DNA of 64,000 bases from Candidatus Bathyarchaeota archaeon (lineage in GTDB: Archaea; Thermoproteota; Bathyarchaeia; Bathyarchaeales; Bathycorpusculaceae), in NCBI GenBank assembly GCA_963767735.1, contig CAVYES010000005.1, positions 224,001-288,000 on the forward strand, in the 5' to 3' direction. How positions within the stretch are numbered: position 1 is the stretch's first letter; every line of letters begins with the position of its first letter. The position numbers and the translations under genes were made by a program. Positions 38,615 through 47,904 of this stretch are shown here, one piece after another. Below the pieces are notes generated by a model. It was not told the origin of the DNA. It was given only the letters and a program-made list of their open reading frames with translations, and searched no databases.

Positions 38615-39427
38615 TTAAGCCGCTTTCGGGTAAGAACCCAATATCCTAACGAATATCGCATATTTCTCTAATGCTTTCAACGCTTCTGCACATTGAGGTT
38701 CGGTTCGATGTCCCTCAAAATCAAGGTAAAAATTGTATTCCCACGCCGTCTTCTTTGTGGGTCTTGATTCAATTTTGGTCAAGTTAATGTTTCGCTTAGC
38801 AAATTCTCCGAGTGCATGGTAGAGTGAGCCTGGCTCGTGTTTTGCTGAGAAAATTATAGATGTTTTGTCTTTTCCTGTAGGAGGAGAATCTTCAGTTGAT
38901 AACACAAAGAAGCGGGTATAGTTCTCAGGGTTGTCCGCGATGTCTTCTGCGAGAATGCTCATGCCGTAGAGGTCGGCTGCTCTTTCGCTTGCAATCGCCG
39001 CAGCATTCTTTAAGCTTTTTTCTTTGAGCATCTTGACGCTGCCAGCCGTGTCATAGGTGGGTATGAGTTCGCGTCCAAACTCCTCCAAGAAACTTCGGCA
39101 CTGCGCCAGCGCCTGCGGATGGGAGTAAACAACCTTGATGTCTGCTAAGGCGGTGCCTGGGTTTGCGATGAGGCAATGCTCGATTTTCACGATGACTTCC
39201 CCGCACACTTTCAAATCGTACTTCAGGAAGAGGTCGTAGTTTTGGGTTACGCTGCCTTCTAAGCTGTTTTCAACGGGGACGACGCCGAACCTGGACTCCT
39301 GTGTGCAGACCCTGTCGAAAACGTCTTTGAAGTCCTTGCAGGGGTTAACTTCTGTTTTGGCTCCAAAGAATTGAAAGACTGCGCTTTCGCTGTAAGCGCC
39401 CCGTTCGCCTTGGAAGGCTACTTTCAC
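38615..39427 (-). CDS. pheA: Prephenate dehydratase with ACT domain
   Basis: QGERGAYSE, PVENSLEGSV, SHPQALAQC, NYTRF and LTKIESRP motifs. Confidence 0.96.
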   Translation of the reverse strand: MKVAFQGERGAYSESAVFQFFGAKTEVNPCKDFKDVFDRVCTQESRFGVVPVENSLEGSVTQNYDLFLKYDLKVCGEVIVKIEHCLIANPGTALADIKVVYSHPQALAQCRSFLEEFGRELIPTYDTAGSVKMLKEKSLKNAAAIASERAADLYGMSILAEDIADNPENYTRFFVLSTEDSPPTGKDKTSIIFSAKHEPGSLYHALGEFAKRNINLTKIESRPTKKTAWEYNFYLDFEGHRTEPQCAEALKALEKYAIFVRILGSYPKAA

Positions 39428-43857: not shown

Positions 43858-44370
43858 TTATTCGTCTATTCTTACCGATTTTGCTCCTCTTGCCAATGCT
43901 GTTATGCCTGTTCTTGCAAGTTCAATGACGCCCGTTGCTTTCATCAAGTTTAGGAACGCATCAAGCTTATCAGGTGTTCCTGTGATTTCCACGGTTAAAC
44001 TGTCAGTGGAAACGTCAATGATTCGTCCTCGGAAGACTTCTACGCAGTTGATAATGTCAGAGCGATCTTTCGCTGTTGGAGAGTTAACTTTTATCAAAGC
44101 CAGCTCACGCATTACATAATTTCCCGGCTCCAGTTCCTCGACTTTAAGCACATCGATAAGTTTTGCGACTTGCTTGACGACTTGGATGATTGTTTTTTCA
44201 TCCTCGTTGACTGTTATTGTCATGCGCGCGATGTCTTTCCTTTCGCTCGGGCCGACAGTGATGCTTTCAATGTTAAAGTTTCTACGTCGGAACAGGTTTG
44301 AAACGCCGAAGAGCACACCTGGCTTGTTTTCGACAAGTACCGAAATTATTTTGGTTCTTCCAGCTTCCAT
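43858..44370 (-). CDS. ilvN: Acetolactate synthase small (regulatory) subunit
   Basis: VENKPGVL...RRRNFNIESITVG and ELARTG motifs. Confidence 0.95.
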   Translation of the reverse strand: MEAGRTKIISVLVENKPGVLFGVSNLFRRRNFNIESITVGPSERKDIARMTITVNEDEKTIIQVVKQVAKLIDVLKVEELEPGNYVMRELALIKVNSPTAKDRSDIINCVEVFRGRIIDVSTDSLTVEITGTPDKLDAFLNLMKATGVIELARTGITALARGAKSVRIDE

Positions 44371-46076
44371 TAGTAGTCACCTCTCTGCTGTGGTAAACCG
44401 CAACCTGGCGGCACAAAGGGGACAACATCATGCTCCGAGCCTATAGGCACATCGATCACCGTTGTAACCTTACTGTTCAGTGCTGTCTTAACTGCTTTTT
44501 GGAATTCCTCCATTGATGTCGCTCGCAATCCCTGCGCCCCGTAAGCTTCTGCCAGCTTGACGAAATCTGGTGTTTTACCCAAGTGAACTGCCATGTAACG
44601 TCGTTTGTAGAGCATTCTTTGCCACTGAGCAACCATGCCCAGCACCGAATTGTTCAGCACTATAACGGTGACGGGAATCTTTTCCGTAACGGAGCATGCA
44701 AGTTCCTGCTCGCTCATTATGAAACTGCCGTCGCCTGCTATGTCAACGACTGGTCTATCTGGGCATGCGACTTTTGCTCCGATTGCAGCTGGAAAGCCAA
44801 AACCCATGGTTCCTAAGCCTCCTGAACTGATGAAGGATCGAGGCTTCAGAGCTTGGAAATAAAGCGCTGACCACATCTGGTTTTGCCCAACTTCCGTAGT
44901 TACTATCGCGTTTTCAGGCAGCAGCTTCCTTAACTCCATCAGCAACGCTTTCGGAACTATGTCTCTGGGTCTATCCTTCAGCAGGGGACTCAGCTGTTCT
45001 TTTGCTTCTTTAACCCGCTTTGCCCAAGCATTGCCTTCACTCTTATGCAGTTTATCGCTTAAGGCGGCAAGCAAAAGCTTCAAGGCTGCTTTGGCGTCGC
45101 CGACTATGGGCACATCAACCTCAATGTTCTTGCCGATTTCTGCTTCATCAATGTCTATGTGGATTTTTTTAGCTTCCCTCGCAAAAGTGTCCAAATTTGC
45201 TGTTGCGCGGTCAGAGAATCTTGTTCCCACGGCCAGTAGCACATCGGCTTCGCCTAGCAATTTGTTCGCCGCCGGGTTTCCATGCATTCCTATGCTTCCT
45301 ACCGACAGGGGATGCCCTTCGGGGAACGAGCCTTTGCCCATGAATGTTGTGGCGACTGGCGCCATCAACAGGTCAGACATCTGCATGATTTCGTCTGAAG
45401 CACTCGAGATTATGACTCCTCCGCCTGAAAGAATCAGCGGGCTCTCCGCTTTCGCAAGCAAACTGGCGGCTTCACTTATCTTAGTTAAGTCTATCTCGAT
45501 CATAGATTTGTAGCCTCTAGCTTCGATCTTATCAGTTACCTCCACTTCGCCAATATCTGACTGTACATTTTTGGGTAAGTCAATCAGAACTGGCCCTGGC
45601 CTGCCAGTGGACGCTATGTAGAACGCTGTATTGACGATTGTTGGAATTTCAGCAACTGTCCTGGGCTGAAAATTGTATTTGGTGATTGGGGTTGTAATGC
45701 CAATTATGTCGGCTTCTTGGAAAGCGTCCTTGCCGATAAAGTATGACGTGTTAATACCTGAGGACGGAACCTGCCCCGTCAATGCTATTATAGGTGAAGA
45801 ATCCATGTACGCGTTCGCTATGCCTGTTACCAAGTTTGTAGCTCCAGGTCCTGAGGTTGCCATACAGACTCCTACCCGACCGCTGGCTCTGGCATAGCCT
45901 TCGGCTTCATGCGCTGCGCATTGCTCATGCCTAGCGAGGATGTGCCTGATTTTCTTATTGCCGCATAATGCATCGTACACAGGCAATATTGCTCCACCTA
46001 AGATGCCGAATATAACATCCACGTTTTGTTGTTCAAGGGATTCTAAGAGTGCTTTTGCACCAGACATTTTGGTCAT
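44370..46076 (-). CDS. ilvB: Acetolactate synthase large subunit
   Basis: RHEQCAAH, TSGPGATN, SSGGLGTMGFG and GDGSF motifs; ATG 46076 with GGAG RBS preferred over TTG 46097. Confidence 0.96.
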   Translation of the reverse strand: MTKMSGAKALLESLEQQNVDVIFGILGGAILPVYDALCGNKKIRHILARHEQCAAHEAEGYARASGRVGVCMATSGPGATNLVTGIANAYMDSSPIIALTGQVPSSGINTSYFIGKDAFQEADIIGITTPITKYNFQPRTVAEIPTIVNTAFYIASTGRPGPVLIDLPKNVQSDIGEVEVTDKIEARGYKSMIEIDLTKISEAASLLAKAESPLILSGGGVIISSASDEIMQMSDLLMAPVATTFMGKGSFPEGHPLSVGSIGMHGNPAANKLLGEADVLLAVGTRFSDRATANLDTFAREAKKIHIDIDEAEIGKNIEVDVPIVGDAKAALKLLLAALSDKLHKSEGNAWAKRVKEAKEQLSPLLKDRPRDIVPKALLMELRKLLPENAIVTTEVGQNQMWSALYFQALKPRSFISSGGLGTMGFGFPAAIGAKVACPDRPVVDIAGDGSFIMSEQELACSVTEKIPVTVIVLNNSVLGMVAQWQRMLYKRRYMAVHLGKTPDFVKLAEAYGAQGLRATSMEEFQKAVKTALNSKVTTVIDVPIGSEHDVVPFVPPGCGLPQQRGDY

Positions 46077-46171
46077 TTCATTGCTTCTCCAATACAATTA
46101 ATAGACTCTCGTCTAAAAAGAAATTGTTTGAAAACTTTTCGATGGCTGTTTCAAAGGGTTCCCTATAAAAA

Positions 46172-46222
46172 TCAAAGAACAAGTACCCGAAGATTCCAGC
46201 TATTGAGGTGACGATCCCTCAT
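46172..46222 (-). CDS. Putative Leu/Val-sensing leader peptide (16 aa)
   Basis: MRDRHLNSWNLRVLVL; 5 of the last 6 codons are Leu/Val; GAGG RBS; U5 run right after the stop; upstream of ilvB. Confidence 0.75.
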   Translation of the reverse strand: MRDRHLNSWNLRVLVL

Positions 46223-46270
46223 CTTAATTCCTCTTGAAACTCTACGTTCCTTAAATTATCTCATTGAACA

Positions 46271-46286
46271 AATAAAAAGTTTACGG
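46271..46286 (-). promoter_or_regulatory. BRE-TATA promoter of the ilv-leu operon leader
   Basis: Minus strand reads CCGTAAAC-TTTTTATT about 50 nt upstream of the leader ATG. Confidence 0.55.
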
Positions 46287-46292
46287 TGTTAC

Positions 46293-47723
46293 CAGTAGAT
46301 GGAAAAGTAGTTTATGATTCTGATGCTTCATTCACATCGTAATCATAACAATTCCTCGATCGGAGCGTTCTAAGCAAGCTTTTTCATTGAACAGTTTTAT
46401 ATCCTGAAGGCTTGAATAGTTGAGAAAGTGGCGGAGTTTAGGGTCTGATCTACGCGATCGAGTCCCTCGAACTGCATCTGAGAATGCTTACCGTCGAGGT
46501 GGCCCTAACCCGCCAATAACAAAGCCTTCAAAATGCACAGCCAACCGCGTCAACGTCAAAACTGGCCTATCAAACGCCTTCTTCAAAGCCCTGCAGAGCA
46601 GAAAGTTAGCGTAATGCCAAACATTGTAGAGCAGCACAGAAGCCATCTGGTAGAGCAGCCTAAGCTTGTAGTTGGTGCTTGTAGTTTTAGCCTGAGCATT
46701 ATCCTGCACACGATAACCAGTCTCAATACCCCACCTCCGCCTGTACTCAGAAGGAATAGACGACGGCAACGCAAGAGCCAAAGACCTTGGAAGATTCGTT
46801 GCAAAACCAAAATAGAGATCACAAACAGTAAGCTTCTTCTTTTTCGGCAACTGCCCTGCTGGTCGTTTATAGATGTAGAGAGTGAAGCTGACGCTTTTTC
46901 TTTTATTGCCCAAAGTGAAACGTTTGGCTCGCTGCTTCTGGTCATAGTTCATCATTGCTTCTTTGACTGTGCCATTCTTAACCGCTGGAATGATGAAATA
47001 GACGCCTAAACTCTTGAGCATAGTAATGACGTCTACTGTGAAGAATGCGCGGTCAAGCAGCACTATACTGATGTGTACCCCTCTTGCCTTTGCTTCAAAG
47101 AGTAGTTTCTCTACAACCTGTGCTTTCTCGCTGAACTGGTTTACGGTAATAGAGTAGATTGCTAATCGTCTTCCGGCTTCAACAATATCCATGCTGGCAT
47201 ACGTGTAGCCCCAATTTGTTCCTCTCTCCTGTTTGCCGCCTATCACATTCTTAGCGTCTGGGTTTCCGTAGAACGGTTGCCTGGTATAATCAATTGCAAC
47301 CACTGCTTTGCGTCTGAAGATGCTATAGCATCGTAGGATGAGTAGAACCTGATCGTTTGCTTCTATAAGTGAGTCTCGAATCTGCTTCTCAGCTAAACGC
47401 TCTATTCTTCCTCTGAAGGTTCTTCCCGTGGGAACCTTGTTTGGCATAGCGCATTTTTCTGAGAGGTCTAATAAGCCGCCTTCAGCGTAGCTTTGGGAGA
47501 GCGAGAGTTGGATTAGACATTGGTTGATATGACTGCTGGTGTAGAGGCTGTTTTTGGCTGCTGGAAACTGCAGGTAGTTGTTGAGCAGGTTGGCTGTGAA
47601 CTTGAAGACTTTGCTTGAAACTTTTCGTTCTTTTGATTTACGCTTTATCGTCTGAGCGCAAGATCTCAATTGTTTGCACTAAAATACTAATATCAAACCC
47701 TTAAGCTACTTTTCCATCTACTG
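46293..47723 (-). mobile_element. Complete insertion sequence, ISH3-like (1431 bp)
   Basis: Perfect 18-bp terminal IRs CAGTAGATGGAAAAGTAG (46293-46310 / 47706-47723); 5-bp target duplication GTTAC (46288-46292, 47724-47728). Confidence 0.93.
46488..47669 (-). CDS. DDE transposase (ISH3/IS4 superfamily)
   Basis: AIDYT, LLDRAF and YRRRWGIETGYR motifs. Confidence 0.93.
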   Translation of the reverse strand: MRSCAQTIKRKSKERKVSSKVFKFTANLLNNYLQFPAAKNSLYTSSHINQCLIQLSLSQSYAEGGLLDLSEKCAMPNKVPTGRTFRGRIERLAEKQIRDSLIEANDQVLLILRCYSIFRRKAVVAIDYTRQPFYGNPDAKNVIGGKQERGTNWGYTYASMDIVEAGRRLAIYSITVNQFSEKAQVVEKLLFEAKARGVHISIVLLDRAFFTVDVITMLKSLGVYFIIPAVKNGTVKEAMMNYDQKQRAKRFTLGNKRKSVSFTLYIYKRPAGQLPKKKKLTVCDLYFGFATNLPRSLALALPSSIPSEYRRRWGIETGYRVQDNAQAKTTSTNYKLRLLYQMASVLLYNVWHYANFLLCRALKKAFDRPVLTLTRLAVHFEGFVIGGLGPPRR

Positions 47724-47904
47724 GTTACTCTCATTTGTTTACAACTTTTTGTTAAAAATTACCTCGCCAAAGCCAACCTACAACTTGATTTCCAAGAAGG
47801 AGAAATAATGACGACTACGAACATTGTTTTTCTCTGACTATCATTGGGTAGTTGATAAAAGCACTTATAACCTGCATTCTCTTTTTCCTTATCTGTGAAG
47901 AAGT

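Follow-up and report, generated by a model that had tools for sequence, protein, structure and literature searches.

The 64,000-nucleotide (nt) stretch of DNA examined here (the window; positions 224,001 to 288,000 of the forward strand of contig CAVYES010000005.1, assembly GCA_963767735.1, Candidatus Bathyarchaeota archaeon) carries on its minus strand an ilvB gene preceded by a short upstream open reading frame (uORF), which, with a probability that we put at about 55%, is a translated, ribosome-sensed cis-regulatory leader of the ilvB-leu operon. The leader is conserved in relatives, has the features of an open reading frame (ORF), keeps its branched-chain codons as a class, and possesses pairing potential at the RNA level. 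An initial annotation of the window, made from its sequence alone, had proposed a leader sensing Leu and Val in the manner of the E. coli ilvBN leader, a bacterial ilvB leader uORF; the conserved ORF, led by a Shine-Dalgarno (SD) sequence and retaining branched-chain codons as a class, has stood up to comparison, and the E. coli-style terminator anatomy has not.

The uORF was found exactly as it had been described, at 46172-46222 of the minus strand (MRDRHLNSWNLRVLVL followed by TGA), and consists of 16 codons (ATG AGG GAT CGT CAC CTC AAT AGC TGG AAT CTT CGG GTA CTT GTT CTT TGA), with the ATG at 46222-46220, the stop at 46174-46172, and the SD hexamer AAGAGG at 46235-46230, 7 nt ahead of the ATG. 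A lone 16-codon ORF in a 400-nt spacer is not unusual by itself, and the share of Leu and Val (6/16 codons) is not significant against the proteome background of 23.4% Leu+Ile+Val; the uORF rises above chance because it is conserved in relatives, and not from the window sequence alone. In a first sample, ilvB orthologues were present in 34 of 41 related genomes (within the genus, at 78-93% identity), and 29 of the 30 loci fetched carried (A/G)TGAGGGAT 132-179 nt upstream of ilvB, the 16-codon uORF being at the same place in all 23 same-genus ilvB loci. Across the order, where ilvB was present in 185 of 301 genomes, the uORF was found in 34 of 40 further upstream regions, and in the six regions without it ilvB sits directly behind the preceding gene inside an operon. 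In the order, 66 leaders were sampled in which ilvB is preceded by an SD and the (A/G)UGAGGGAU uORF. A single exact copy of the 23-nt start motif is present in each of 89 species genomes, and in the window's own genome it is unique and located only ahead of ilvB; the genomes sharing the leader motif are labelled Bathyarchaeia or Bathyarchaeota, some of them Candidatus Bathycorpusculum.

Every leader has an SD, an AUG or GUG start and an in-frame stop. The two start codons are equally represented (33 of 66 each), no other start is used, and the distance from AGAGG/GGAGG is always 7-8 nt. The length of 16 codons is kept in 77 of 83 unique motif copies, with the stop falling at codon 17 though codons 14-16 vary, and with all three stop codons in use (TAA 53, TGA 26, TAG 3). 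Orthologous leaders neither lack the uORF nor lose its branched-chain codons, as might have been expected of a spurious ORF: codon 6 is Leu or Val in 66/66 leaders (CUC 49, CUU 3, GUA 14), and its equivalent is Ile, Val or Leu in 12/12 uORFs of the MGYRFI type from other orders, so that over both uORF types this position stays Leu/Val/Ile via five or six different codons. Val13 is kept in every unique copy that reaches codon 13 (82/83). The tail formed by codons 14-16 is 64.5% Leu/Ile/Val in frame (149/231), as opposed to 17% and 43% out of frame, and shows a three-nucleotide periodicity, with T at codon position 2 in 78% of cases; the tail types are LIL (28), QLF (12), QIL (6), FIL (6), HFY (5) and others. 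It is from the start codon with its SD, from the fixed stop behind a periodic tail, and from codon 6 that we argue for translation in addition to constraint on the RNA.

A translated uORF could also act as a constitutive tuning device, through ribosome loading, mRNA protection or a fixed brake, with no sensing of branched-chain amino acids. The conserved ORF features would suit such a role, some uORFs are only 6-8 codons long with a single Leu (MRDRFL, MRDRYLI), and no output switch was found, either as SD masking or as pairing of the leader with the ilvB ribosome-binding site (RBS). We nevertheless regard this explanation as quite improbable in view of the restriction of the motif to ilvB in this genome, the universal branched-chain codon 6, and the fact that the runs in related lineages consist of just those amino acids whose synthesis the operon serves.

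A five-codon unit, RGG-RAU-NNN-NNN-(L/V/I), occurs twice within the uORF; in the window's type it reads RDRHL and then WDRRV, 21 nt apart, and in other families the order is swapped, with RDSRV followed by RNRFL. Both copies of the repeated GGGAUC word within these units end 5 nt ahead of a Leu or Val codon, the second word being degenerate in the window (GGAAUC). Of all sites in the leader, the 16S tail binds best to the segment GAGGGAUCG, at -11.5 kcal/mol, compared with -6.2 kcal/mol for the consensus upstream SD and -6.4 kcal/mol for that of ilvB; the upstream SD as it reads in the window misses the listing cut-off of -6.0, and the second word reaches -7.7 in the genus-typical sequence. 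The GGGAUC words may pause the ribosome on the sensor codon, an idea that goes back to work on SD-like ribosome pausing in bacteria, which is disputed. The same repetition could be read at the DNA level, as an operator in which a transcription factor recognises a pair of GGGATCGTC words at a distance of 21 bp, and a direct repeat with two-turn spacing, invariant as DNA, is what such an operator would present. It would, however, lie at about +25 to +65 from the predicted transcription start, which is unusual for an archaeal repressor, and the modules swap order in other families, yet the SD, the start and the frame are kept; with the second word degenerate in the window, we consider an operator of this kind extremely improbable.

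RNAalifold, applied to 23 leaders of the genus, predicted three helices, P1, H and V, for which pairs were counted on 81 sequences (alignment A2). P1 joins AGAGG to CCUCU over a long range, its core pairs being formed in 93-100% of the 81 sequences. Its 5′ arm is the uORF SD region GUUUCAAGAGG (46230-46240, minus), in which AGAGG is nearly invariant, and its 3′ arm is an anti-SD, CCCUUUGAAAC (CCCTTTGAAAC; 46148-46158, minus), with its 5′ end in the window 14 nt past the first base of TGA. The best anti-SD duplex begins 15-16 nt past the stop in 23 of 63 leaders, with uORFs of 8, 13, 16 and 19 codons, and P1 recurs in other genera with other sequences (GGAGG:CCUCC, UCACGG:CCGUGA; duplex z -2.5 to -3.75). 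Taken singly, 14 of the 63 SD-downstream duplexes beat 95% of shuffles, at a mean z of -0.8, so that the support for P1 comes from its constant position and not from its energy. A ribosome positioned at the stop would have its 3′ edge approximately where the anti-SD lies.

Hairpin H (46204-46221, minus) pairs UGAGG, made up of the UG of the start codon and AGG, with CCUCA, which is Leu codon 6 plus an A. Its four core pairs are formed in 28/28 unique variants, and since the changes are of the wobble kind only, covariation gives no proof of H. Hairpin V (P3; UAGCUGG...UCGGGUA, 46184-46202, minus) ends in Val codon 13 and holds the degenerate GGAAUC word; 98.4% of its cells are paired in the 81 sequences, all changes are one-sided, and of the changed cells 32 are still paired via G-U or C-G and eight are unpaired. 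A further helix, ALT, excludes hairpin V by sharing one of its arms: CUGGA/CUGGG of codons 8-10 (46199-46195) pairs with a 3′ arm located 7-11 nt past the stop (46163-46167, minus), which is CCCAG in relatives and UAUAG in the window. ALT is 94.6% paired, one of its pairs appearing as G-C (60), A-U (10) and G-U (9), and the window forms four of its five pairs.

The mechanism that we favour for a ribosome-sensed leader would operate as follows. The short ORF would be translated, and Leu6, Val13 and the L/I/V-rich last three codons would sense the supply of charged tRNA, with stalling, as we infer, serving as the signal. The leader could fold shut, the start codon being closed by Leu codon 6 in H and the uORF SD by the anti-SD approximately 16 nt past the stop in P1, and codons 8-10 could pair either with codons 11-13 (V) or with the word 7-11 nt past the stop (ALT). 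Slow passage over the sensor codons would mean that the ribosome still covers the arms behind the stop, so that the leader stays open; with fast completion of the ORF, the leader could close, and the spacer of about 100 nt would be left ribosome-free. The output would then be premature termination or transcript loss, at a T-tract or via an archaeal termination factor, and not the masking of the ilvB SD.

A number of observations weigh against this reading. Conservation peaks over codons 1-13 and not in the tail, and it does so at the nucleotide level, third positions included: AGG is kept in 66/66 and GAU in 64/66 leaders, and the words GAUCGUCA, AAUAG and, twice, GGGAUCGUC are near-invariant in 81-89 species, with their third positions and loop bases. 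Over these codons no excess of synonymous change was found, the nucleotides being near-invariant, and the amino acids at codon 4 (R/C/H/S) and codon 9 (W/R) are replaced non-conservatively, indicating that the constraint is largely on the RNA and not on the peptide; judging from the alignments, selection certainly acts at the RNA level. Only one or two sensor codons are universal, and they do not form a run. The expectation that related uORFs end in L, V or I agrees with the composition of the tail as a whole, and fails for 10 of 77 tails, which have no Leu, Ile or Val (HFY, QFF, PRN, HFN; a frameshifted row reading “LF” is included here as having none). The support for the helices consists mostly of one-sided change, compensatory change being sparse across P1, H, V and ALT, and the ten double changes in ALT possibly come from one clade. 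The fold of the whole leader is no better than that of shuffles (z -0.17).

Some of these points lend weight to the main rival, in which the leader is a small RNA-only structured element whose binding partner would be a metabolite, a protein or the 16S tail, and the SD, the RUG start and the stop are just parts of its fold. Such an element would account for the near-invariance of third positions and loop bases, for the non-conservative amino-acid changes, for the three-helix arrangement of P1, H and V, and for the preference of the 16S tail for GAGGGAUCG over the upstream SD. We regard it as unlikely, since AUG swaps only with GUG, codon 6 remains Leu/Val/Ile through several codons, the variable tail has codon periodicity, the stop is fixed amid varying neighbours, and sister lineages have plain I/V/L-run ORFs at the same place; the stability of the fold is also unremarkable. 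A search of 45500-47000 against Rfam with cmscan, at E up to 10, yielded four chance-level matches, at 13.6-21 bits far below gathering scores of 36-100, and no family, the best matches having E of 0.66-1.1. The Rfam library presumably includes the T-box, ilvB-OMG, ilvH, the amino-acid leaders and the ppGpp/ykkC riboswitches. A T-box-like pairing with tRNA was also considered and set aside, as the tRNAs for Leu, Val or Ile did not stand out when duplex energies of the core were compared over the genome's 33 tRNAs.

The remaining points concern the route from the leader to ilvB. All elements named in the initial annotation are present in the window: a T5 run right after the stop (46171-46167), a 7-bp stem (TTTGAAA, 46155-46149, with TTTCAAA, 46133-46127), a T-rich tract TTTCTTTTT (46115-46123), a TAGAC-GAGA-GTCTA hairpin with a GNRA loop (46102-46115), all on the minus strand, and the ilvB RBS. 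A terminator scan of the minus strand nevertheless found no intrinsic terminator, that is, no hairpin followed by a U-run. Masking of the ilvB SD is not conserved, the probability of its being unpaired in 68 relatives being 0.39 versus 0.38 in shuffles, and leader-to-RBS pairing does not stand out either (duplex z -0.1). For the window itself, the ilvB SD is predicted to be paired (P unpaired 0.05-0.08), and a switch masking it between leader states was seen in 1 of 56 cases. Translational attenuation by masking of the ilvB SD, including a four-region switch via the 7-bp stem, was therefore rejected as not conserved. The T-tract, on the other hand, is kept in position: the longest T-run lies 50-59 nt ahead of the ilvB ATG in 36 of 68 relatives, and runs of at least four and at least five T are present in 57/68 and 31/68, respectively, with a mean of 4.4 versus 3.2 in shuffles. 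Because SD masking and RBS pairing are not conserved and the tract keeps its place, premature termination or loss of the transcript within the ribosome-free spacer is favoured as the output; the tract may be an archaeal oligo-T termination or pause site, and termination would be either intrinsic at oligo-T or mediated by an archaeal termination factor.

The same elements could instead be assembled into an attenuator of the bacterial type, as the initial annotation had done, in which the 7-bp stem or the GNRA hairpin would combine with the U-tracts into intrinsic terminators at about 46170 or 46118. Their joint presence in the window and the constant position of the T-tract near -55 are in accord with this proposal, and the comparison with relatives is not: the stem, with its single G-C pair, is missing in most of them, the hairpin site in most reads AGACGA(G/C)AGUAUAG, with a stem that does not close, so that the hairpin is not counted as a conserved part, and the T5 run is confined to a subclade. 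With an archaeal host and a negative terminator scan, we consider a bacterial-type attenuator very improbable.

Evidence of transcription comes from four peat metatranscriptome runs of one study, in which relatives of the region are present as contigs. Two RNA contigs, 46028-46239 and 45944-46236 (the latter with 9 differences over 293 nt), bridge the start of ilvB and the whole uORF, and end 14-17 nt ahead of the uORF ATG, inside the predicted transcript, with none extending further upstream. They are silent on transcript ends, strand, level and ribosomes, and may include DNA carry-over, which limits the support that they give to a ribosome-sensed leader; weak as this evidence is, it speaks against a transcription start downstream of 46222. 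The DNA runs in which the region is represented come from metagenomes of soil and peat, and none contains more than 0.49 of its words.

Leaders of a plainer kind precede ilvB in other lineages. In a sample of the class, ilvB was present in 151 of 201 genomes, and of the 40 upstream regions fetched, 39 had sufficient length for analysis. Among the leader types of the other orders are ORFs with I/V/L runs, such as ...LIVIVILI, ...LLIVVLVLLV, ...VVVIII and ...ILVLLIIILP (leaders L087, L088, L107, L108, L092, L093, L096, L099, L102, L081 and L071), and a stretch of eight codons with at least seven branched-chain ones occurs in 10 of the 39 regions, as opposed to 1 of 39 on the reverse strand. The stops of these ORFs lie 59-75 nt ahead of ilvB, and a hairpin starts at the stop in each of 16 I/V/L-run leaders (mean z -2.3). 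In two I/V/L-run families the beginning of the run contains CUCAUCGUC, which by eye is complementary to the start region GACGAUGAG, a putative start-to-run pairing that follows the same logic as hairpin H. Other orders have tandem uORF units at a spacing of 42-45 nt, each with an SD and AUGGGGUAUCGCUUUAUU (MGYRFI and variants) and with a GGGG...CCCC closing helix (L082-L085, L091, L097); in L097 an MGYRFI unit and a GDRFL unit are joined in one ORF.

In a sample of the phylum (ilvB in 198 of 251 genomes; 39 regions analysed), one family of another class has ORFs of the ...SILLQVELVL type (e.g. MTKVDSTSISSILLQVELVL) in 4 of 5 regions, ending 32-65 nt before ilvB. In the branched-chain-rich leaders L200, L201, L202 and L237 of this family, the stop lies inside a small hairpin. 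Elsewhere in the phylum we found three leaders of the MRD type (MKRDQALQVH, MKRDQTLQVH, MRDGTLQV) and one MRVILVRQIL (L222-L224, L233). Taken together, the class and phylum samples indicate that branched-chain leader ORFs ahead of ilvB are widespread in this archaeal phylum, and the leader type of the window is one variant among them. The window's leader resembles the I/V/L-run leaders of the other Bathyarchaeia orders and of the other class in the gene served, the position, the SD-led ORF and the branched-chain codons near the stop; it differs in having single sensor codons behind GGGAUC and a long-range closure, where the others have an unbroken run of 5-9 I/V/L codons and, immediately behind the stop, a strong local hairpin. 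A tentative generalisation, to which we give somewhat less than an even chance, is that amino acids are sensed by leader-ORF translation in Archaea through an ilvB leader family extending across Bathyarchaeia and other classes of the phylum. The window would then hold a modular variant, in which RGGRAUC words complementary to the 16S tail and placed 5 nt ahead of single Leu/Val/Ile codons hold the ribosome, and in which the SD and the start are closed by segments at the edge of the terminating ribosome's footprint.

The ilvB gene itself occupies 44370-46090 of the minus strand, including its SD (GGAGA, 46090-46086), with the ATG at 46076, and its product is the acetolactate synthase large subunit, with three thiamine pyrophosphate (TPP)-enzyme domains recognised by Pfam. 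A two-codon mini-ORF, ATG AAA TGA (46081-46073, minus), overlaps the ilvB start out of frame in the window and in its closest relatives. By Pfam assignment, ilvB is the first gene of a string ilvB-ilvN-leuC-leuD-leuB-leuA-pheA. The last of these, pheA (prephenate dehydratase; 38615-39427, minus), faces a plus-strand cluster for aromatic amino acids comprising aroA, aroC, an aminotransferase gene and tyrA. A genome-wide scan for other leader ORFs with amino-acid runs was too noisy to be of use, its best Phe-rich match (at about 6342) lying inside a gene on the opposite strand.

The host genome (3.04 Mb, 43% G+C) contains an archaeal 16S gene with the 3′ end ...GGAUCACCUCCU, and its assignment to an archaeon follows from this gene and from the kind of promoter found at the leader, a TFB recognition element (BRE)/TATA-type promoter ACCGTAAACTTTTTATTTG (46269-46287, minus), which is kept in same-genus upstream regions. 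With the spacing between TATA box and start that is usual in archaea, transcription of the leader is predicted to start near 46248. In many relatives a palindrome (GTTC-TTTTTAAA-GAAC, GTAC...GTAC or TACC...GGTA) spans the predicted start, at columns 12-28 of alignment A2, or about 46262-46246 in the window; its arms co-vary between species, and its loop is itself TATA-like. The leader region forms the spacer between ilvB and a transposase gene at 46488-47669. The latter belongs to an insertion sequence at 46288-47728, which has a DDE transposase gene and 37-nt terminal inverted repeats (46288-46324 and 47692-47728), and is present in the genome in three copies at 100% identity. Its end adjoins the BRE/TATA element at 46287, and the promoter was left intact.

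Leader-peptide attenuation is a textbook bacterial mechanism, and in the open full text of PubMed Central and bioRxiv we found no paper on it, or on any ilvB leader, in archaea. Archaea possess a eukaryote-like polymerase and terminate transcription at oligo-T tracts or through aCPSF1/FttA; as polymerase and termination differ in this way, a ribosome-sensed leader would need an output unlike that of bacteria. The closest published relatives are bacterial ilvB uORF motifs, namely Corynebacterium ilvB-II, ilvB-OMG and the Leptospira ilvB motif (PMC10272879). The bacterial elements, too, came to light as conserved RNA motifs, and each comprises a short ORF that has a start codon of its own and lies ahead of ilvB. 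Their peptides are variable and enriched in branched-chain codons, and sensing by ribosome stalling was proposed for them. In contrast to these elements, ours belongs to an archaeal host, has a TATA/BRE promoter, lacks a detectable terminator hairpin with a U-run, carries one or two universal sensor codons and a short tail in place of a run, and has its own start codon and SD as paired elements; the Rfam models are unmatched by it.

Two other bacterial systems offer partial parallels. In the E. coli trp leader, the ribosome-binding site is closed by a distal RNA segment, and here, too, the leader SD pairs with a segment transcribed behind the ORF, so that only early rounds of leader translation would be possible; unlike in the trp leader, the anti-SD of several families keeps a fixed distance of 15-16 nt from the stop, and the start codon itself is closed by another helix. 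In control of the tnaC/Rho type, a ribosome held at the end of the leader ORF hides the entry site of the termination factor. The window's leader is similar in that its sensor codons adjoin the stop, the accessibility of the RNA behind the stop would change, and a long untranslated spacer follows. It would differ in that the signal would be tRNA charging and not free amino acid in the ribosome tunnel, and the dependence on a factor is purely conjectural. The candidate for such a factor would be aCPSF1/FttA, the archaeal termination factor (10.1101/843821).

Overall, the leader of the window looks like an archaeal version of the bacterial amino-acid-sensing leader peptides. For an unannotated conserved element present in 89 species genomes it provides a concrete annotation, and it forms part of a comparative series, in which some orders have classical I/V/L runs, others have tandem MGYRFI units and this order has the MRDRxL type, which makes the question of leader-based sensing in archaea a testable one. 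It is also worth mentioning that lineages outside Bathyarchaeia carry a simpler form of the leader and may be easier to grow.

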